From assembly GCF_006345805.1 (NCBI RefSeq), contig NW_021826737.1:1-12024 (forward strand): a DNA stretch of 12,024 nt. Reading direction: 5' to 3'. A program made the translations under genes and the position numbers. The DNA is from Octopus sinensis (lineage: Eukaryota). Position 1 is the first letter of the stretch, and each line of letters begins with the position of its first letter. Under the pieces are notes generated by a model that made no database searches, was not told the origin of the DNA, and worked only from the letters and a program-made list of their open reading frames with translations. This document shows, one piece after another, positions 1-12,024 of this stretch.

Positions 1-702
1 AAGAAAGAAAGAATGAATGAATGAATGAATGAATGAAAAAATGAATGAATAGTTGAAAGAGAAAGAATGTTTCAATAAATTAAAGAATGACAGAATGAAA
101 GAAAAACAGAAAGAAAGCAGGGAAAATTTTGAAAGACTATTATAATACAAATAAATAAATAAATAATAGAAATAAATAAATAAATAGATGAACAGAAAGC
201 AAAAAAAAAGAAAAGAAAAAAGAGAAAGAAAATGGTTGAGAATGATAGAAAAATTGGGAAAAAGATGCGGAAAGAATGAGAGAGAAAGAAAATAAGGAAT
301 ACTTAGAATGGTAAAAAAAAGAAGGAAGCGGTGAAAGTTTGATTAAGAAGAATGAAAAGAGACAGCAAAAACAAAAACAAAAAAAAAACAAGGAAAGTTT
401 AGAGGAAGGAAGGAAGGAAGGAAGGAGGAAGGAAGGAAGGAAGGAAAGAATAACGCATGAAAGAAGGAGACGGAAAAGGAAAGAGCGCGAATAAATGAGC
501 TAGAGAAAGAGAGAGGTGAGAAAGTATAAAAAGAGAGAGAGAAAGAGAGGAACAGAAAGTGACAATGGAAAAGAGAGAGAGAGAGAGAGACAGTGAGAGA
601 GACAAAGACAGATTGACAGACAGATAGACGGACAGCGGACGGACGGAGACAGAGATATAAATAGAGAACAGGAGAAGGAAAGCAATATAAGACAGACAGA
701 GA

Positions 703-738
<36 letters not shown>

Positions 739-760
739 AGAGAGAGAAAGAGAAAAGGTG
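1..760. repeat. Purine-rich low-complexity tract with (GAAT)n, (GGAA)n, (GA)n, (GACA)n
   Basis: Plus strand is overwhelmingly A/G; (GAAT)n ~11-50, (GGAA)n ~404-447, (GA)n/(GACA)n ~500-755. Confidence 0.95.
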
Positions 761-800
761 TATTGTAGAGCTTATCGTTAGAAACTATTTTTAAGTTTTG

Positions 801-889
801 CACGTTCGATATGTCGACGCTCTTAATTACTGATTGACGTCATCAGAACTGTGTTTGCAACACGTGGCAGTTAGGTATAGAACACGTGG
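801..889. promoter_or_regulatory. Candidate cis-regulatory motif cluster (CRE plus E-boxes)
   Basis: CACGTT 801-806, perfect CRE TGACGTCA 835-842, two AACACGTGG (E-box CACGTG at 861-866 and 883-888) in a short island of complex sequence. Function not demonstrated. Confidence 0.3.
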
Positions 890-948
890 TCAGGACAAAC
901 AGAAGGCTAAGGCTGAGCTTCACTTTCACAAATCATAATAACTCGAAA

Positions 949-970
949 GACGACGACGATGATGATGATG
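949..970. repeat. (GAC)/(GAT)n trinucleotide repeat
   Basis: gacgacgacgatgatgatgatg. Confidence 0.9.
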
Positions 971-1092
971 GCGGGAGTGACGGTGGTTATAACAATGATG
1001 ATATTAAACTATATTCAATAGCGTTGTGTAGTGTAATAGCGAGGATATTACATAGTCATGGGTTTTGTAAGCTGAACTTCCGCTACGCTGTG

Positions 1093-1125
<33 letters not shown>

Positions 1126-1530
1126 TTATATGCTTGTTTTCATATCTTTTGTTGCTTATTTTTGCTTTTAGTTTAACATGTGCGCGTGTATCTGTACGTG
1201 CACACACGTGTGTGTGTGTGTGTGTGGTGTGTGTGTGTGTGCATGTGTGTCGGCAGGTGTAAGCGTATAAGTATGCATGTGCGAATATGTGTATACACGT
1301 ATAAGCATAAGTATGCGAGCATTATATGCATGTACAATATACACACATATAAACATATACATATGTCTATATGCATCTGTATTTACATATATACTCATAC
1401 TTATAGGTGGGTATGTATGCATACGTATGTACGTGTATGCATGCACGCGTGTACATATGCACGTTTGCAGTTGTGTGTGCATATGTGTATTTGTGTATGC
1501 GTATAGAAATGTATGTATATAAATGCATGC

Positions 1531-1587
<57 letters not shown>

Positions 1588-1754
1588 GTGTCCATGTATG
1601 TATGTATGTATGTATGATGTATGTATGTGCGAATATGTGTATCCAGGTATAAGCATATGTATGCAAACATTGTATGCATATATGTACTTAATATATATAT
1701 GCATGTAGGCATGTGCGAGTCTGTATGTATGCGCATACACGCACACACACATAC
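1093..1754. repeat. Degenerate alternating purine-pyrimidine (GT)n/(AT)n/(ATGT)n tract
   Basis: Pure (GT)n runs at ~1096-1123, ~1208-1241 and ~1542-1586 embedded in degenerate RY alternation. Confidence 0.95.

Positions 1755-1835
<81 letters not shown>
1755..1835. repeat. (AGAT)n microsatellite
   Basis: About 20 perfect AGAT units. Confidence 0.98.
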
Positions 1836-1836
<1 letters not shown>

Positions 1837-2081
1837 AACTTACTAGGAAGAGAATGCATGGTGTTCAATCATATAATAATATAAATGATATATATATATA
1901 TATAATATATATATATATAATCTCTAATTATAAACATAATTATAATTAGGGGCCAGCTAATTGCTTCACCACACAGCGAATTTAGAAATAGGAGTTTAAA
2001 AATTCATTTTCTACCATCGTAAGAATCTCCCAGACAGTAACACACTTTTTTACGTAGAATGAATCCAGTCGACTCCGATTA

Positions 2082-2143
2082 GCCACATACGCGTTTCGAA
2101 ATTAAAGTATATTTACTTACTTATTTCTCATCATCAGTGTAGC
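2082..2143 (-). ncRNA. Type I hammerhead ribozyme motif (minimal Penelope/retrozyme type) with a 3-nt UGA duplication in the core
   Basis: Minus strand reads GCUACA-CUGAUGA-(UGA)-GAAAU AAGUA aguaaaua UACUU ua AUUUC-GAAA-CGCG-UA-UGUGGC. Stem I GCUACA/UGUGGC (one G.U), stem II GAAAU/AUUUC plus AAGUA/UACUU, palindromic short stem III ACGCGU, cleavage triplet GUA. Confidence 0.75.
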
Positions 2144-2336
2144 ATTTCAAATATAAAATTTGAAAGAACTAGGGTTGAATATGTACACGATCAAGCGCAA
2201 CAGATATCCAACCAACACTTCCAAAATTTACACAGCCGAATGTGAATACATACTTGTCCCTTGTACCCACGTGTGTGTTACGAGCGATCCCGCAGAAACT
2301 GCTTTTTTCGATCTGGGAGGAAAAGGAATTTTTTAA

Positions 2337-2677
2337 CAATCTGGCCAGCCCCAATGAAAGACTAAGTTAAATGCAGTAGATTCCTTGGAAGAAAGTAGCG
2401 AATATATAGGAAAACAAAGGCGGAAATAAAAAACGGAAACTGTAACACAAATACAAATAACAGGTCATAACAACAAGTGTCTTTCGACTTAGGACGAATT
2501 ACATTAAGCTGGCGTGAGAGAAATGGTATACAAATACAAATAACAGGACTGACATGTTATTTGTATTTGTGTACCATTTTTCCTTTTTTTTCGTCTTTGT
2601 TTTCGTATATATTCGCTGCTTTCTTCCAAGGAATCTAATGCTCTTAGTTTAATTTTTCCTTGGGGCTGGCCAGATTG
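2337..2677. repeat. Inverted pair of ~125 bp repeat arms with a nested near-perfect hairpin; probably two opposed copies of a dispersed repeat (right copy may extend to ~2830)
   Basis: 2337-2462 (caatctggccagccccaa...ttccttggaagaaagtagcgaatatata...cacaaatacaaataaca) is the diverged reverse complement of 2555-2677. 2521-2545 pairs with 2555-2579 at 24/25 around a 9-nt loop. Confidence 0.85.
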
Positions 2678-2875
2678 GACCAATCTCGAGTATAACCAAC
2701 CGAAATTGCAAAGATAATTTGGAACTCGACTGAGGAAAGAAAACTCCGAACGACCCGTCCTTGTTTTCTTTGTATCGTTTATCTGGATGTTTTGCGTTCT
2801 TGTCCCAATTTTGTATTTTTTTATTCATAAAAATATAGCGGCGTACGTACACTTTGGTCTCATATATATATACTC

Positions 2876-3085
2876 ACTCTTTTACTCTTTTATTTGTTTC
2901 ATTCATTTGACTGCGGCCATGCTGGAGCACCGCCTTTAGTCGAGCAAATCGACCCCAGGACTTATTCTTTGTAAGCCTAGTACTTATTATATCGGTCTCT
3001 TTTGCCGAACCGCTAGGTTACGGAGACGTAAATACACCAGCATCGGTTGTCAAGCGATGTTGGGGGGGGACAAACACAGACACAA

Positions 3086-3163
<78 letters not shown>

Positions 3164-3278
3164 GACGGGCTTCTTTCAGTTTCCCTCTACCAAATCCACT
3201 CACAAGGCTTTGGTCGGCCCGAGGCTATAGTAGAAGATACTTGCCTGACACCGCCCAATGGGATTGGACACAGAACCA
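2876..3278 (-). mobile_element. tRNA-derived SINE family A, copy 1 (head degraded)
   Basis: Reverse complement aligns to the complete copy at 10437-10852, including the (AAAAGAGT)n tail at ~2876-2895 and an internal (CA)n(TA)n at ~3090-3162. Similarity decays after ~3245. Confidence 0.92.
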
Positions 3279-3499
3279 GAGACGTATGACCTTAAAATGA
3301 TCTTGCCCATCAATCTACGTTCATGCCTCGACGTTATCATCTATTATTAATTATAATCTCCTCTGTATATATTTAGATTTTTATTGTTTAATTTTTATGT
3401 AATACTATAAATATTAATTTATCCTTATCCGTGTTTAGCTATTAATTATTTTAATGGATAATCTGCTTTAGTTTCATTATCTTTATTTGTATTGTCATT

Positions 3500-3625
3500 A
3501 CTATTTCATTATATATACATACATATATGTATATGTGTGTATATATTCACATACATATATCTATATAAATACACATATATATAATGTGTGTGTACACACG
3601 TATATTTATATGTATATACTGCGCT

Positions 3626-3658
<33 letters not shown>

Positions 3659-3730
3659 TATGTTGCTAAGTACTAATAAAATATGTGTGTGTTTCTCTGT
3701 GTGTGTGTATTTGTGTGTGTCTGTGTCTTT
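3500..3730. repeat. AT/GT low-complexity microsatellite tract
   Basis: Degenerate (AT)n and (GT)n. Confidence 0.85.
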
Positions 3731-3742
3731 ATAAGGTATACA

Positions 3743-3890
3743 AGTGGGTTTCCTGTGGTAAAAGTTTACTTCTCAATCCAATGGTTCTGGATTCCATTCC
3801 CACAGAGTGGTACCTTCGGTAAATGTTTGGAGTTAACCAAAGCCTTTTCAGTGGATTTGGTAACCAGAAACTGAAAGAATCCCGTAGTAT
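3743..3890 (+). mobile_element. SINE family A, copy 2 (old, 5' half only)
   Basis: ctgtggtaa...atggttctggattccattcccac...gtggtaccttcggtaaatgt...accaaagcctt...agtggatttggtaaccagaaactgaaagaatcccgt matches 10447-10600; it ends in the (TA)n that is internal to the family. Confidence 0.8.
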
Positions 3891-3894
3891 ACAG

Positions 3895-3926
<32 letters not shown>

Positions 3927-4017
3927 TATATTTAAGAAAATTGAATGTTACTGCCGGTCAAAAGGTGACTGTTGGTTTCGTACCTATAAAGCGCTTAACT
4001 GCATAGGCGACCCGGCT

Positions 4018-4063
4018 ATCTTTACATTCTGAGTTCAAATTCCACCGAGGTCAACATTTCCTT
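4018..4063 (+). mobile_element. SINE family B fragment (B-box region)
   Basis: tctttacattctgagttcaaattccaccgaggtcaac matches the family B B-box segment. Confidence 0.7.
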
Positions 4064-4065
4064 TA

Positions 4066-4242
4066 AGACGATGAGCAGTCAGAATCGTTAGCACACCAGG
4101 CAAAATGCTTGGCGGCATTTCGTCCGTCTTGTTGTTCTGAGTTCAAATTCCCCCAGGGTCGACTTTGCCTTTCATCCTTCGGGGTCAATAGATTAAGTAC
4201 CATTGTGTGCTGGGGGTTGATGTACCAAAATTTGACACTAAT
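4066..4242 (+). mobile_element. tRNA-derived SINE family B copy
   Basis: Head gatgagcagtcagaatcgttagcacacc, B box gagttcaaattcc, central gcctttcatccttcggggtcaatagattaagtacc, shortened ccaaaatttga-type tail. Confidence 0.88.
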
Positions 4243-4400
4243 ATTGAATGCAATCATGAAATACCGCAAAAATTCCTCAGATTAGTACGTTTTTCTCGAG
4301 CCCTGGTTCTTATAAGAGCAGGTTACCTATTTTCCAATGTATATTAGTTACCGAGATCACAACCTTATCCTTCAACGAGATGCCGGTCTGTGGCAGAATT

Positions 4401-4790
4401 CAAGGCCAGCAATTTTGAAGGGAGGGGCAAGTCAATTACATCGTCCCATGGGATGAAAGGCAAAGTTGCCCACGGTGGAATTTGAACTCATATCGTAAAG
4501 ACCATTTCGTAAAGAAATGGTTCCAAGCATCTTCAGCGAAGCGCCACCGATTTTACCAGCTCGTCACATTAACATTGGTTTCAAATTCTGACGCCAAGCC
4601 AGCAATTTGAAGTGAAGTTAATCGATTACATCGATCTCGGTCCTTGACTGAAACTTTATTTTCATCAACTCTGATGGATTTAAAGGCAAATTTTACCTGG
4701 GCGGAATTTGAACTCATACCGTAAAGAATCAGAAGAAATACCACTGAGAATTTTGTCCGACGTGCAAACAGTTCTACCAACTCACCACCT
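4401..4790 (-). mobile_element. Two older SINE family B copies in head-to-tail tandem (~4401-4569, ~4574-4790) with the AAATTGCTGGC-type tail
   Basis: Each has ggaatttgaactca (B box, reverse complement), ends at a ccagctcg/ccaactcaccacct head, and starts with a gccagcaattt tail. Confidence 0.85.
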
Positions 4791-5208
4791 ATTTCTTTAT
4801 TGCACACAAGGGGCTAAACATAGAGGGGACAAACAAGGACAGACAAACGGATTATATCGACCCCAGTACGTAACTGGTACTTATTTAATCGACCCCGAAA
4901 GGATGAAAGGCAAAAATCGACCTCGGCGGAATTTGAACTCAGAACGTAGCGGCAGACGAAATACCTATTTCTATTTCTTTACTACCACCCACAAGGGGCT
5001 AAACACAGAGAGGACAAACAAGGACAGAGAAACGGATTAAGTCGATTACATCAATCCCAGTGCGTAACTGATACTTATTTATTCGACCCCGAAAGGATGA
5101 AAGTCAAAGTCGACCTCGGCGGAATTTGAACTCAGTACATAACGGCAGACGAAATACGGCTACGCATTTCGCCCGGCGTGCTAACGTTTCTGCCAGCTCG
5201 CCACCTTA
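4791..5208 (-). mobile_element. Young dimeric SINE family B unit (full copy ~4966-5208 plus 5'-truncated copy ~4791-4965) with Tx1-like-derived tail
   Basis: Two highly similar direct units. Minus-strand head ggtggcgagctggcagaaacgttagc (A-box-like), B box gagttcaaattcc, tail ...tgtttagccccttgtg...taaagaaata. Confidence 0.92.
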
Positions 5209-5320
5209 ATAACAATATAGGGCCACACATACTTGATGGTGATAAGAAGGAAGTATAACCGATTAAATTGTACCTCTTGAAAGCGAAATCAAAACTGGAA
5301 AAATCGGTTCGTTGATTTTG

Positions 5321-5600
5321 TGTGTCTCAGTAGCTGGCAAGTTGCTTGACTATCTTTCAACTGCGGCATTAGAATAACGGTGACTTCCACCCGAGTCATA
5401 ATTTGGTGTCAGTCCAACTAGAACTTACATTTAACCATTGTCTACTTTTCTGTTTATAAAGAGAAACTCATAAAATTTGATTTGCATATCGATTTCATCA
5501 AGGCCTTTGATAAGGCTTATTGTGAAATAGTGTAGAAGCCATTTGAACGTTATGGACATATACGCAAACTAATATCATTATCACAAACACTTCACAGTAT
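5321..5600 (+). pseudogene. Degenerate non-LTR reverse transcriptase fragment (RTE-like)
   Basis: Manual translation gives VSVAGKLL...LPPES*FG...; after a frameshift IDFIKAFD (DFIKAFD at 5491-5511)...V*KPFERYG..KLI.L.QTLH. This follows the RT motif order LLSxxGK / LPESQxGFR / FxDFxKAFD / LWxxLxxYG; several stops. Confidence 0.7.
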
Positions 5601-5606
5601 AATGAT

Positions 5607-5684
5607 ATCTATCTATTTATCGATCTATCTATCTACCAATCTACATATCATTCTGTCTATGTATTAAACTATCTGTCTATAAAC

Positions 5685-5766
<82 letters not shown>

Positions 5767-5957
5767 GTGTGTGTATATATATATGGTCAGGCACATATAT
5801 GTATATATTGTGTGTGTATGTGTGTGCGTCTACATACTTATATAAACGCACGTATCGTGTATGCATAGCGTCTCAAAATAGACGCTCCATCTCATTCTTT
5901 TTGTATGTGTGTGTATATATATATGTTTGTGTTTATGTGTATACATATACTTATGTG

Positions 5958-6020
<63 letters not shown>

Positions 6021-6196
6021 TTTATGTATTAATTCTATTTATATGGACAGGCATATGTCTGTGCGTGTGTGTATGTGTGTTTTGCGCATGTATGAAGACG
6101 CGCGTCCGATTGGTTTGCACGTTCTTTTTAAGAACACATTCTTGTCTGCACCTGCATATATACATACGCACATACATACATACAGACAGACAGACA

Positions 6197-6271
<75 letters not shown>
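5607..6271. repeat. Compound microsatellite tract: (ATCT)n, (AT)n, (ATGT)n, (AGAC)n, (AGAT)n
   Basis: (AT)n ~5691-5743 and ~5958-6017; (AGAT)n ~6197-6271. Confidence 0.92.
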
Positions 6272-6272
<1 letters not shown>

Positions 6273-6351
6273 CTTTCTTTATTGGATACACAGGGCTAAA
6301 CACAGTGGGGACAATTACAATGTAGAGTTTTTCTTTTCTGAAAGACGGGAA

Positions 6352-7095
6352 AGACGCGTTCAGTTTCCAGTAAATGAGGCCCTGCCTATATGCTTTATCT
6401 AAATCTAGCGTACACGTCACAAGTTTGTGATCCGTGTAGCTGACTATGTGGAATTGTGGACATCCGAAGCTATCCCTATCAACTGTCCTACACAGTATCC
6501 TATCTAGATACGATCTCGACGACCCAATGCGGTTGGTCCATGTCCACGTTGGCGCTTTTGGATGATCGAGTCAGTACCTGGCAGACAGTTGAGAGCGTTC
6601 GAACAGGTCTCGAAGGCATTTCCATCCCCGTCTATTTCTGTCTCTTCCCACGTAGTCTAGATGCGTGTCCAAGGTAGCATTCCAATCCCCCACTAAAAGT
6701 AAAGGACGAGACGTTCCCAAGAATACTTCTAGATGTCGAAAGATAACCGGCCAACCTGTTAAAGGCGGTGCATAGACTGCTAGGAGTCGAAAAGCGCACC
6801 CATCGCTGCCGTCGACAGCCAGTCTACCCTCCGGGTCTACGAATATCGTCTTTACTTCGAGATCCAGACTCTTGCGAAAAATTACTGCCGTGCCACTACC
6901 GCCCATCTTCGGCAGACAGGACGAAAAATAAACGTTAACCTGTCCGCCAAACATGGATTTTAGGGCCCGTGGCTCATGGAGTATGGTCTACTTATGGCTA
7001 TGATTCCCAAATCGTGTGACTTTGTCATTTAATAAGTACCCTTGTTTCCAAGGGGACTCCAAGCCACGCGCATTCGCACAACTAATCTTGACCAT
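6352..7095 (-). pseudogene. ORF2 apurinic/apyrimidinic-like (APE) endonuclease domain of the retrotransposon, disrupted and truncated
   Basis: From ATG at 7095: MVKISCANARGL, then (frameshifted) IIAIS.T, GTAVIFRKSL, FVDPEGR, AVYAPP, LLLVGDWNATLD, a TGA at 6573-6571 (probable CGA>TGA), then PTWTW...SRSYLDRI...YTDHKLV...YWKLNAS. These are the canonical L1/Tx1 EN motifs in order. Confidence 0.92.
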
Positions 7096-7210
7096 GATCC
7101 TATTGAGTTGTGTGCTTTAAAACACAAACAAGAGGAACAGAGAATTACTTACCGTTCGAAAGTTTTGTTTCCCACTTTGATTTTTCATCAAGGAGGCTAC
7201 TGTAAAGTTT

Positions 7211-8205
7211 TTATGCTAAGTATTTATGACATCCCCCTACCGCATTGAGGCAGAGAGATTTTAGTGTGTGGTGCAATTTTGGTGTGATATGGTAAATTTT
7301 GATGTGTTCTGGTGGTGTTGTGTATGGGTGGTTGCTCGTTTTAATGTTTTGCTGTTCAAGGACACCAATTTCTAAAATATTAGCTTCCTCCATTTCGAAG
7401 CAGATGGTAGATAACAACCATTGCGTCTCTATCTCTGGAGGCACATTCTTTATTCTTACCTTCGTCACTCTTTGCCCAAGATAGCTGGGTATCATTATCA
7501 GCTGGTTTCTACGAAGAGTGAGTGGTGAAAATTGCTTTGCTAATTTTTCGCTGTGGAAATGAATTTGAACAGTGGCAAATTTATGCCACTAATTGATGTA
7601 TTCCTTATGTGGCCATACAGGGCGAAGGCATTTTGAATTTTTTCCTGTGCTGCGTTTTCGGGGTTTTTTTTCTGTACTCAATATTTTGTAGATGATGGCT
7701 TTTTTTGCGTGTGTTTGTTCTATGTTCTGAAGGATGTATAAATGTAAATTTTCGTCTTCTTTCTTAAGAAGTGTTTTTGTTTCTTTGATCTGTTGTGCAG
7801 TGAAAGATACGATTGTTCTCTTTTGTTTAATTGCTTCGGCGAAATTTGTTTTGGTGGTGGTGATTGTGTCGGTGGCAGAGGTGTCATTTGTAGCAGTTGA
7901 GGTTGTAGTAGTGACGGCATAGCGACGATATCATTGTTGTTGTTGTTGTTGGTGTTATTGGTGGCGGTAGCAGTGGTAGTCATGGTGGTGGTAGTGGTGG
8001 TGACAGGGCTGTAAACGATCGTAGTTGCAGAGTTCACTTCCACGTCACTCAGGTTTGCCTTTGATTTCTTATCATTTTTCATGTTTGTAGTTGTATGTGT
8101 GCGCGTGCAGGAGTTATTCTTTTTTTCTCCTAGCGTTTCAAGGCTAGGGAAATGCTGGTCCATGAAGGAATTTGACCAACGTTCTATGATGACATTTCTC
8201 GACAT
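7211..8205 (-). pseudogene. ORF1 (RRM-like, Tx1-type) remnant of the retrotransposon, frameshifted
   Basis: Lies directly upstream of the EN domain. Thr/Asn-rich N-terminus (ORF 7720-8205); across frameshifts KFATVQIHFHSEKLAKQF...MIPSYLGQRVTKVRIKNVPPEI resembles the Tx1 ORF1 RRM region. No CCHC knuckle found. Confidence 0.65.
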
Positions 8206-8394
8206 TTTTTAAAGTCAAGAAGAAAATATACAAATTTAATTAAGGTTGAAACTTTCCCTTGGAAAGACACTCAAACGAAATTTGGGTACTTCACACTCCT
8301 TATGGGCAAAAATGTAAACAAAATGTGGGCTATAAATGGTAAAAAAAAAATGATTACTTTCGGAGCCGATGCGACAACACGTCAGTCGATACAC

Positions 8395-8707
<313 letters not shown>

Positions 8708-9030
8708 TGTACGTCAGAAATAACGGGATGTTGCTCTACCTCAGGGGAAAAGATACTCTGACAAAACTCGCCGTCAAAACAGTACCAGCCATTTTGTCAT
8801 GATATCATGGCGAGCGATTGGGTGGCGCATGTATGAAAGTAAACCACAGCAATTGGGTTGAATACGAGGCGGCAATAATGTGACGTGATTAGGCAACCAT
8901 CATGTATGTATATTTATTATGTCAAAAGTTGACAGTTTTTCTTCTCGGTTTGAATACCTCAAGACAAATATAATAAGTCTAGCCTGGCTAAAGCTCTGAG
9001 TGGACGACCAAATTTTATATAATAAACATA

Positions 9031-9228
9031 CAGTGTGGTCCAAAAGTAGGTTTACAGTAATTCAACTATCTCTTTCAGATTTGCAGTTTAAATCTTAATT
9101 ATAAAAAAAATGTGAAACCCTTATTCTATGCTAATTTCGTTAATTGTAAGATAGAAATTTAAATGTAATAAATTTTTTTGTAAAAAAGTGCCTAGGTGAT
9201 AACTGTAAGCCTACTTTTGGCCAGTCTA
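9031..9228. mobile_element. Tc1/mariner-type MITE (~198 bp) with TA target-site duplication
   Basis: Left TA|CAGTGTGGTCCAAAAGTAGGTTTACAGT; right ACTGTAAGCCTACTTTTGGCCAGTCTA|TA. Inner 19 bp of the TIRs match 18/19; AT-rich non-coding interior. Confidence 0.75.
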
Positions 9229-9296
9229 TATTTATGCACTCATTCCAGAGAGTTTTATATCAGATAATGTCTGAACTACATAAAATATATTTTTTT

Positions 9297-9740
9297 CTTA
9301 GCGACATTTTGTCTGTCTTTACGTTCTGAGTTCAAATTCCGGCGAGGTCGTATTTACGTTATGAGTCCAAATTTCGGCGAGGTCGTTTTTGCATTTCATC
9401 CTTTCGGAGGCGATGAAATAAATAAGTACTAGTTGAACACTGGGGGTCGATGTAATCGATTTTCTGTCTCTCCCCTCCACCCCAAATTGCTGGCCTTGCA
9501 CCGAAAGTTGTAACAAGTATTACCGTCTAAGGTGGTGAGCTGGCGGAATTGTAACCGCGCCGGGCAAAATGCTTAACAGCGTTTCGCCCGTCTTTTCGCT
9601 CTGCGTTCAAATTCCGCTGAGGACGACTTTGCTTTGCGTCCTCTGTGTCAATGACATTTGTACCAGCTAAACACTGAGGTTGATGTATCCGACTTAAACG
9701 CTTCCTCAAGATTGCTGGCCTTGAGCCAAAATTCGATATC
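9297..9740 (+). mobile_element. Two SINE family B copies head-to-tail (~9297-9515, 5'-truncated with duplicated B box; ~9531-9740)
   Basis: gagttcaaattcc B boxes, tttcatcctttcgg...aataagtactag...ctgggggtcgatgtaatcga core, attgctggccttg tails, second head ggtggtgagctggcggaattg. Confidence 0.88.
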
Positions 9741-9769
9741 CATACTGTTATCTTCTACCTTCAGCATTG

Positions 9770-9864
9770 GACAGTGGCCATGCTGGGGCACCACCCTGAG
9801 GAGTTTAGCTGAGCATATCGACTCCCAGTACTTTTTTAAAGTTCTGTATATATATATATATATA

Positions 9865-9899
<35 letters not shown>

Positions 9900-10204
9900 T
9901 GTATGTATGTATGTATGCATGTATTTATGTATCGCTTGGTTACGGTGACGTATGTAAAACAACACTGGTTGTTAAGCGGTGGATGGCGGGCAAGCACAAA
10001 TACAAAGACACACACGCATAGATAAGTACATACATATATACAACGGGCTTCTTTCAGTTTGCCTCTACCAAATTCACTCACTAGGCTTTGGTTTACCGAG
10101 GTCAATAGTAGAAGACAATTACCCAAGGTACCACGCATTAGGAGTGAACCTGGAACCATGTAGCTAGGAAGCAAACCTCTTACCACGCAGCCAAGTCTGC
10201 GCCT
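9770..10204 (-). mobile_element. SINE family A, copy 3 (older, split by an (AT)n/(ATGT)n tract at ~9846-9930)
   Basis: Tail-side ggccatgctggggcaccacc at ~9777-9796; body cgggcttctttcagttt...; head ending cttaccacgcagccaagtctgcgcc at ~10203. Confidence 0.85.
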
Positions 10205-10436
10205 ATATATGCATACATACAGTGTAACTCACGCGCACAACACACACACACACATACCTAGTATATTTTTGTAAGTGACAATGAACGAAGCGTTTCAGCC
10301 CTTGAGCCAATTAATATAAAATGATACATACTCATTTTTGAGTTCTATTTATCTGTTTCCATCACCAAATCTATGTACATGCATATATAATGTATAGATA
10401 GATAGATAAATACATAGAGACGCAGGAGTGGCTACA

Positions 10437-10852
10437 GGCGTAGGAGTGGCTGTGTGGTAAGTAGCTTGTTTACCAACCACATGGTCCCGGGTTCAGTCCC
10501 ACTGCGTGGCACCTTGAGCAAGTGTCTTCTACTATAGCCCCGGGCCGACCAAAGCCTTGTGAGTGGATTTGGTAGACGGAAACTGAAAGAAGCCCGTCGT
10601 ATATATGTATATATATGTATATATATATGCGTGTGTGTGTTTGTGTGTCTGTGTTTGTCCCCCGAGCATTGCTTGACAACCGATGCTGGTGTCTTTATGT
10701 CCCCGTCACTTAGCGGTTCGGCAAAAGAGACCGATAGAATAAGTACTGGGCTTACAAAAGAATAAGTCCCGGGGTCGAGTTGCTCGATTAAAGGCGGTGC
10801 TCCAGCATGGCCGCAGTCAGATGACTGAAACAAGTAAAAGAGTAAAAGAGTA
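10437..10852 (+). mobile_element. tRNA-derived SINE family A, copy 4 (complete)
   Basis: A box TGGCTGTGTGG 10447-10457, B box GGTTCAGTCC 10490-10499, CORE-like ccttgagcaagtgtctt, internal (TA)n(TG)n, tail (AGTAAAAG)n. Resembles described octopus tRNA-SINEs; the family name was not verified. Confidence 0.93.
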
Positions 10853-10900
10853 TACATACAAACATACATACATACATACATACACACATGCATACATACA

Positions 10901-10934
<34 letters not shown>

Positions 10935-11217
10935 CATACATACCTACGTGTATTTTACAAATGCATTCAGGTATATATGTAAGTACAGATGTATATATGC
11001 ATTATATATATATATATATAAATATAAATACACATATATACATATGTATGTATGAGCATGTATATGAATACATTTATGCATATAAATATATATATTTGTG
11101 TGTGTGTCTGTTTATATGAATATCTGCATATATATAACTATATGCATTCGTATGTACATCTCTCTATATGGGTGTGGTGTGTGTGTGTTTGTGTGCGTTT
11201 GTTTGTGTGTTTGCATG

Positions 11218-11261
<44 letters not shown>

Positions 11262-11432
11262 AGGTACATATAGATAGCTTGATAGACAGAGAAATACATG
11301 TATGCGTGCAGGTATATATTGGCATGTATGTGTATGTATATGTATGTGTATGTATGTGTGTGCATATATATATATTATATATGTATGAATGTGTATATAT
11401 TATATATATATATATACATATGTATGTATGTA

Positions 11433-11470
<38 letters not shown>

Positions 11471-11885
11471 ACAATATATGTATATATATATGTATATATT
11501 ATAACATACATAATATATATTATATGTAGTAGTATGTATTATGTAGTATTATGTATGTATGTATGTATGTAGTATGTAGGTATGTATGTGTATGTATTGA
11601 ATATAAAATCAAAAAAGCAACAAGGATTGATTTTAATCACCTCACTTTGAAATTGTATCGATTATGCCGTACCAATTCTGGTGCCTCAACTAAGTAGCAT
11701 ATTCATCTGAATCTAAATTTTTGCTACACTTATCTACCATGCCTATGGTATATATATTATGTACATATGCCTATATATATTTATGCATATATGTATATGC
11801 ATAAGAATGTGCATGCATATTTATATATGTATTTATACATGGATATATATATATAATAATATATATATATATATATATGTAATAT
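10853..11885. repeat. (ATAC)n, (AT)n, (GT)n low-complexity tract with a short unique island at ~11600-11745
   Basis: Direct inspection. Confidence 0.92.
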
Positions 11886-12024
11886 GTTGTTGTTGCTGTT
11901 TGTGTTAACGTTTTTTTTCCTCGTGTGTGTGTGAGTTCCGTCTCCCTCCTTAATACATAGTGACTAATGGCCTAAAACTAAGTTTCCTCACTTTCTCTAG
12001 TTCGGAGATGTTCCAAACGATAAG

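Follow-up and report, generated by a model that had tools for sequence, protein, structure and literature searches.

Small, structurally minimal hammerhead ribozymes are known from Penelope-like elements (PLEs), and related motifs occur in non-coding retroelements. As described in the sections of Cervera and De la Pena 2014 (PMC4209133) that we draw on, the PLE minimal hammerheads (min-HHRs) have a type I fold in which helix III spans 1-2 bp and its loop is palindromic. A genome contains many variable copies of them, grouped into covarying families, and they lie mostly as single motifs in truncated elements, with some motifs on opposite strands 100-700 bp apart. The same sections give four hallmarks of the class, namely an extra nucleotide between A9 and G10.1, a G10.1-C11.1 pair, a palindromic 15.2-16.2 with loop 3, and a long helix II. 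In the non-LTR retrozymes of animals (Cervera and de la Pena 2020, PMC7229834), each unit is non-coding and AT-rich, measures a few hundred bp and contains a single type I hammerhead; genomic copies may be longer than one unit. Retrozymes form tandem arrays, from dimers to large multimers, carry canonical hammerheads with loop-loop contacts and are expressed as circular RNAs. The parts of a preprint by Li, Clavereau and Pollet 2026 (10.64898/2026.07.22.740005) used here argue that non-LTR retrozymes are derived from PLEs and propose that they depend on them. Sm-alpha and Sj-alpha of schistosomes, in the portions of their description considered here, are dispersed, short, non-coding retroposons with a type I hammerhead; they have canonical hammerheads that are active as monomers, and a tRNA-like part.

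In this study, we analyzed a hammerhead motif and its relatives starting from a 12,024-nt stretch of Octopus sinensis DNA (contig NW_021826737.1, positions 1 to 12,024; the whole stretch is called the window). Our favored reading, which we hold to be likely, is that the motif is a minimal type I hammerhead with an intact core, lying in a decayed copy of a 538-bp non-coding repeat that was most likely mobilized in trans by PLEs, and that the motif, in the source transcripts of the family, is predicted to cleave itself only as a dimer. The octopus family shares with the PLE min-HHRs, as far as the cited sections describe them, the type I fold with its short helix III and palindromic loop, the many variable copies in covarying families and the prevalence of single motifs in truncated elements, some of them on opposite strands 100-700 bp apart. 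Unlike the PLE min-HHRs, it has no open reading frame (ORF) of the RT-GIY-YIG type between or beside its hammerheads, and we found no PLE with matching ends. With the non-LTR retrozymes it has in common the non-coding, AT-rich unit of a few hundred bp, the single type I hammerhead in each unit and genomic copies longer than one unit; unlike the retrozymes, it has a minimal hammerhead, and it shows direct dimers at 3 of 91 loci and no arrays among the loci sampled. It resembles Sm-alpha and Sj-alpha, on the portions considered, as a short dispersed retroposon, but has neither their canonical monomer-active hammerhead nor a tRNA-like part. The element is of a known and fairly ordinary kind, and the family adds to the PLE-associated minimal hammerheads.

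The motif occupies 2143..2082 of the minus strand and reads GCUACA / CUGAUGA / U / GAGAAAUAAGUA-AGUAAAUA-UACUUUAAUUUC / GAAA / CGCGU / A / UGUGGC. When helix II is drawn in the register with a one-nucleotide bulge, it becomes GCUACA-CUGAUGA-U-GAGA-AAU-AAGUA-AGUAAAUA-UACUU-UAA-UUUC-GAAA-CGCGU-A-UGUGGC. Its parts are as follows, where A1 denotes an alignment of 107 distinct hammerhead instances taken from pattern matches in the genome.

2082..2143, minus strand: whole minimal type I hammerhead motif, from sequence match and conservation in sibling copies
2138..2143, minus strand: 5' strand of helix I, GCUACA, positions 2.6-2.1; 91% of 648 cells paired (642 cells in A1)
2131..2137, minus strand: core box C3-A9, CUGAUGA; A1 columns invariant by construction of the pattern
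2130, minus strand: single unpaired U between A9 and G10.1, from comparison with siblings; a PLE min-HHR feature in the cited sections of PMC4209133
2098..2129, minus strand: whole of helix II; all 9 pairs with changes on both sides in 107 sequences
2129-2126 with 2101-2098, minus strand: proximal part of helix II, GAGA with UUUC, one G.U; 82.4% paired in 107 sequences
within 2098..2129, minus strand: 3x3 internal loop between the proximal and distal parts of helix II
2122-2118 with 2109-2105, minus strand: distal part of helix II, AAGUA with UACUU; 86.3% paired in 107 sequences
2117-2110, minus strand: loop 2
2094..2097, minus strand: core box G12 A13 A14 plus A15.1 (GAAA), from sequence
2089..2094, minus strand: palindrome ACGCGU; 2-bp helix III (A15.1-U16.1, C15.2-G16.2) closed by a loop of 2 nt
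2087..2088, minus strand: predicted cleavage site, 3' of A17 (2088) and before U1.1 (2087), as a motif position only
2082..2087, minus strand: 3' strand of helix I, UGUGGC, positions 1.1-1.6, from pairing and covariation

The initial annotation had placed a hammerhead on this strand, and the sequence bears this out, with every element that it named lying in the order in which it named them. The type I core is complete (CUGAUGA, GAAA, the A15.1-U16.1 pair, and A as H17), and helix I forms six pairs, one of them G.U. Its assignment to the minimal type I hammerheads of the PLE class with a 2-bp palindromic helix III is supported, all four hallmarks given in the cited sections of PMC4209133 being present in the motif, and the predicted cut between 2088 and 2087 stands as a position within the motif. 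The window contains one more hammerhead-like match, at 4536 on the minus strand; it lacked helices and was taken as chance.

The hammerhead motif is not a chance match. We searched with the core pattern CTGANGA-N30-48-GAAACGCGT, in which only the core boxes and the palindrome were fixed, so that the stems were free to vary. The window contained a single match to the pattern and 200 dinucleotide shuffles of it contained none; in the whole 2.72-Gb genome there were 356 matches versus 13 for a reversed-pattern control. The stability of the fold did not differ significantly from that of shuffled sequences (z = -1.35), 20 of 200 shuffles folding as well. The initial annotation had proposed Rfam Hammerhead_1 (RF00163) as a check. 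No Rfam hammerhead model matched in the window at the gathering threshold, and there was likewise no hammerhead match at E<=10 in window 1900-2300 or in five sibling loci that included canonical-core copies; the scans returned only microsatellite-driven miRNA look-alikes. RF00163 and related models describe the same core boxes and the same type I topology, and the helix III of 2 bp and 2 nt together with the bulge is a likely reason why the window motif is missed.

We then looked at the helices across the family. At fixed offsets, and independently of any alignment, 591 of 648 helix I cells were paired (91.2%), compared with 18-36% in shifted registers. Every helix I position showed at least two Watson-Crick pair types (at 2.2-1.2, C-G in 45 and U-A in 43 instances), there were 29 distinct fully paired haplotypes, and all six pairs formed in 67 of the 107 sequences of A1. 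For the structure as a whole, 87.2% of the cells in A1 were paired versus 31-47% when it was slid along the alignment, and the covariation score was 0.51 versus at most 0.155, a value reached by none of 500 shuffles. Thus helices I and II covary heavily over 107 instances, and covariation among homologues was one of the features whose absence the initial annotation had named as evidence against its reading. Subfamilies are 68-83% identical to one another over the unit, so the compensatory changes arose while the source copies diverged, which argues for a constraint on the fold. H17, which the pattern left free, was A, C or U in 105 of the 107 instances. Individual hammerhead copies decay freely: in a sample drawn without bias, only 14 of 31 copies kept both boxes and the ACGCGU palindrome.

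The point at which our reading departs most from the initial annotation is helix II. That annotation had paired GAAAU with AUUUC and saw an extra UGA triplet, a lesion that might leave this copy of an otherwise canonical hammerhead inactive. The pairing does exist in the window copy, where it gives the better fold by 2 kcal/mol (-10.6 versus -8.6 kcal/mol for the alternative). It is a C-to-U change in this copy (UCUC to UUUC) that favors this non-family fold, which explains the earlier choice made from a single sequence. Across the family, however, the three-nucleotide register fails. On A1, just 20 of 107 sequences form its pair between columns 21 and 67, so GAAAU/AUUUC is not the family helix II, whereas the one-nucleotide register leaves the proximal helix paired at the level listed above, with A-U/G-C exchanges. 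When registers were counted over 108 instances by pairs from both anchored ends of helix II, the best register had no bulge in 47 instances, a one-nucleotide 5' bulge in 43 (25 of which have an opposed 3' nucleotide) and the three-nucleotide register in 2. The string CUGAUGAUGAG is common to most copies of the subfamily of the window and is therefore not a private lesion, and siblings with C in place of U (CUGAUGACGGG) retain the one-nucleotide register. The "extra UGA" is thus a mis-registration, and its proposed disabling effect is extremely improbable: the window motif differs from the canonical core by one nucleotide and not by three.

The family helix II is GAGA/UYUC with one unpaired nucleotide between A9 and G10.1. 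Canonical-core siblings read CUGAAGA-GAGAAG...UCUC without the extra nucleotide, the subfamily of the window reads CUGAUGA-U-GAGAAA, and other siblings read CUGAUGA-C-GGG...CUC. In viroid hammerheads, a single nucleotide inserted at the same place is reportedly compatible with activity; those hammerheads are of type III, come from plant viroids and have stable helices, whereas the octopus motif is a minimal one of type I. Since the unpaired nucleotide is a published hallmark of the PLE min-HHRs (cited sections of PMC4209133), it is no sign of inactivation. The C-to-U change is a different matter, and judging from the modeled folds it may cause the window copy to misfold. A G-C pair closes helix II in 57 of 107 sequences. 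Unlike the PLE min-HHRs, some octopus subfamilies lack the extra nucleotide (absent in 71/107 and present in 36/107 by alignment column), and others oppose it to A. We also observed that at columns 17 and 69 of A1 the base of helix II is N opposite A in 26 of 107 sequences (C.A 16, A.A 7, U-A 3), which makes a third closure of helix II in the superfamily besides G-C and the one-sided bulge.

The hammerhead belongs to a dispersed repeat, for which a DNA search using window 1945-2200 as the query returned at least 1381 first-look candidate copies. Of these, 40 were scored, and the full-length non-self matches among the 40 were 79-90% identical. The genome-wide search for copies that the initial annotation had suggested therefore shows that the sequence is not single-copy. 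As a ruler we used a real copy with two hammerheads, L030:1011-1850, in which the hammerheads are 538 bp apart, so that the unit is 538 bp. Ruler positions 351-800 align to window 2323..1896 with 80.4% identity, and when 29 sibling loci are placed on the window, their coverage goes up at about 1900 and drops at about 2330. These comparisons, together with an alignment of 30 copies, delimit the following features.

1917..2323, minus strand: single copy of the non-coding repeat that carries the hammerhead, covering about 407-428 of 538 bp
1755..1932, no strand assigned: microsatellites adjoining the 3' end of the copy, (TA)n-like at 1871-1932 and (AGAT)20 at 1755-1835

The window copy has its 5' end at 2323 and its 3' end near 1917, the BLAST alignment extending to 1896 through TA-rich sequence, and it contains 188 nt upstream and about 200 nt downstream of the hammerhead. 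Of the earlier proposal that about 1945-2170 is a non-coding mobile unit, the non-coding, multi-copy nature held up and the limits did not, the copy spanning about 1917-2323 and the unit 538 bp. The copy is single, shorter than one unit and about 80-90% identical to its siblings. Probably it is a lone, old insertion with an intact core that is now inert, since it is single and diverged and carries the change that favors a fold foreign to the family.

Other repeats were seen in the window. Three copies of a different repeat of ~420 bp lie at 2861-3278, 9967-10219 and 10433-10858; this repeat also flanks the hammerhead element at 13 of 29 sibling loci, has an enormous word depth in every run compared and, with loose ends that resemble a tRNA-type box B, is probably a very abundant SINE. 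On the minus strand at 6571-6987, an ORF fragment matches the Exo_endo_phos endonuclease domain (E 1.2e-5) and is a decayed LINE remnant. The window is exceptionally rich in microsatellites: Tandem Repeats Finder lists 58 rows for its 12 kb, and in 19% of its 60-nt windows simple repeat makes up >=30%.

We scored the architecture of insertions in 30 loci from the DNA search. The 5' ends lie at scattered positions throughout the unit. For the 3' ends there are two classes, one near unit positions 235-262 in about 18 loci, the window included, and one near 336-350 in 8-9 loci. The direct part is longer than 538 bp in 9 of 30 loci and reaches up to about 1.7 units; in seven loci besides L030, one continuous alignment crosses the same unit junction. 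At 8 of 30 loci an inverted, 5'-truncated partner abuts the 5' end head-to-head, and in at least 6 of these 8 the partner reaches the element's own 3' end. Microsatellite sequence covers the 3' flank in 13/30 and the 5' flank in 10/30 loci versus 12.1% of 2559 random 60-nt windows. According to the passages of PMC8557442 consulted, PLE insertions are marked by high 5' truncation, by partial tandems, by inverted 5'-truncated copies next to the element and by a bias toward microsatellites, and the octopus family shows each of these traits. The initial annotation had also suggested looking for tandem copies. These do exist as direct tandems of two hammerheads, at 3 of 91 loci with a spacing of 538-551 bp, and none had three; the loci counted came from a sample of about 124 drawn from more than 1000 copies. 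When the 30 5' ends were compared with the predicted cleavage site, none came closer than about 10 nt, and in 2 of 30 copies the sequence continued through an upstream hammerhead. Hence, cleavage does not define the ends of the cDNA. The two discrete 3' end classes, ~90 nt apart, recall a PLE 'tail' or two start sites of reverse transcription.

Variable 5' ends and microsatellite 3' flanks could also be expected of a SINE-like element with a microsatellite tail that is mobilized by LINEs and carries its hammerhead incidentally, like schistosome Sm-alpha, and two copies (L009/L125 and L039) are indeed directly followed by a 5'-truncated RT of the LINE type. We regard this explanation as very improbable. 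As the two LINEs come from different families (32% identity) and each is 5'-truncated itself, they appear to have inserted later. Inverted partners with their own 3' ends and partial tandems with a fixed junction are traits of PLEs and not of LINE twin priming, and no tRNA-like part was found in the window, where ARAGORN detects no tRNA and a tRNA-derived SINE was accordingly rejected, or in five sibling loci. As an observation on these two loci, the truncated LINE-type RT sequences begin right at the 3' end of the hammerhead element and in the same orientation, and LINEs perhaps land in its AT-rich or microsatellite tail.

We searched for an autonomous partner among the PLEs of the genome, which contains thousands of candidates with RT and GIY-YIG domains. 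Of 5029 candidates from a genome search with PF01541, 150 were scored, and all but one of these (149) passed; four ORFs of 775-883 aa combine RVT_1 with a C-terminal GIY-YIG domain. Around the hammerhead copies, 127 ORFs of at least 150 aa were present in 124 loci; 78 were dropped as low-complexity, and among the 49 scanned none had an RT joined to GIY-YIG. Linked RT/GIY-YIG ORFs, which the initial annotation had thought worth looking for, were not found in the +-1.5 to 3 kb surrounding 94 hammerhead loci. Comparison of the unit with 16 PLE loci (12 GIY-YIG and 4 long PLE) gave only short AT-rich matches and no shared sequence. Three neighboring sequences were considered as partners and rejected: a PLE 1.4 kb from one copy (L086/L142) is itself 5'-truncated, unrelated and an independent copy, the RT next to L009 (L009/L125) belongs to a LINE-type ORF, and the RT next to L039 belongs to the different LINE family mentioned above. 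In the loci covered, the family thus lies outside the pseudo-LTRs of RT plus GIY-YIG elements, where PLE min-HHRs are placed, and because it lies there outside any ORF-bearing PLE we file it as a non-autonomous relative.

In a genome so full of PLEs, the copies might alternatively be cut-down 3' ends of an ORF-bearing PLE, the 538-bp unit being merely a pseudo-LTR junction and the family having no standing of its own. This seems improbable to us: eight loci run unbroken past one 538-bp unit with no ORF between the hammerhead positions, and the negative searches around the 94 hammerhead loci and in the 16 PLE loci tell against it as well.

Some PLEs of the genome carry hammerhead-like motifs of their own. 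The PLE at L140 (G000:C1:207473000-207482900) has ORFs of 479 and 781 aa (RVT_1 plus GIY-YIG) and identical hammerhead-like motifs in flanking direct repeats, at 584 and 6519 on the plus strand and 5,935 bp apart; these motifs belong to another sequence family than that of the window. Further min-HHR-like motifs, with the palindromes ACAUAUGU and ACGAUCGU, were seen at L141 and L134.

How might the family be copied? On our favored reading of PLE mobilization in trans, the source RNAs would be multimeric or circular, and the combination of fixed 3' ends, no fixed 5' end and unbroken copies up to ~1.7 units fits a template of this kind. A PLE reverse transcriptase, acting on nicked AT-rich or microsatellite DNA, would initiate at an internal, fixed 3' site and copy a variable length; for one PLE, the passages of PMC11167929 considered here describe internal initiation and cleavage of AT-rich DNA. 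The hammerhead, as a dimer and possibly aided by protein, would process the multimers. With a helix III of 2 bp, the hammerhead is not expected to fold stably alone, and self-cleavage is predicted to require the pairing of two copies via the ACGCGU palindrome. When two window motifs were cofolded, the energy was -26.7 versus 2 x -10.8 kcal/mol, and the minimum-energy structure paired both ACGCGU stretches, predicting a 6-bp intermolecular helix in the dimer. This matches the dimer model for such hammerheads as reviewed in the relevant part of PMC6765202. Over window 1200-3400, the element has only a low word depth in Logan contig runs labelled 'RNA?'; that label is a guess, and since contigs do not reveal ends, the depth carries no information on expression or cleavage.

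The motif could instead be kept for a role other than cleavage, as a platform for binding or folding with a PLE protein, as a promoter or as a signal for the initiation of reverse transcription, with cleavage incidental or absent. We consider this unlikely, although several findings speak for it. In the one PLE treated in the passages of PMC11167929, hammerhead mutants inserted normally in vitro, hammerhead cleavage needed protein, and those passages report no RNA-seq reads ending at the site; the cited sections of PMC4209133 describe low in vitro activity of PLE minimal hammerheads, even as dimers; and in the octopus family no 5' end of the 30 lies at the cut site, and two copies read through an upstream hammerhead. 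These points, and the rarity of direct dimers in the DNA, weigh against our favored reading as well. Set against this, what has been conserved is the catalytic core together with two helices that covary while their sequences drift, and the avoidance of G at H17 in 105 of 107 instances is a pattern that a working hammerhead needs and that goes beyond what a protein site would require.

A more specific version of PLE mobilization in trans, which we offer tentatively and think has only a modest chance of being right, would make the family a ribozyme-bearing parasite of PLEs whose template is circular or endlessly repeating RNA. From one of two fixed sites, reverse transcription would run for half to 1.7 turns of the 538-nt template, through the hammerhead site.

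Overall, our finding leaves the knowledge of ribozymes or retroelements unchanged. The family contributes over 100 natural variants in which helices I and II show compensatory changes and helix II closes in three ways, and as Rfam misses these variants, they could guide better search models. It also illustrates that a reading made from sequence only can misplace helix II. The copies with a fixed 3' end and a length of more than one unit are a testable hint on the reverse transcription of non-coding PLE passengers. If the family is indeed a parasite of PLEs copied from circular or repeating RNA, it would offer a natural series of bulged, unbulged and N-opposite-A hammerhead cores, and it would tie the minimal hammerheads of PLEs to the life cycle of retrozymes in an invertebrate-like genome.
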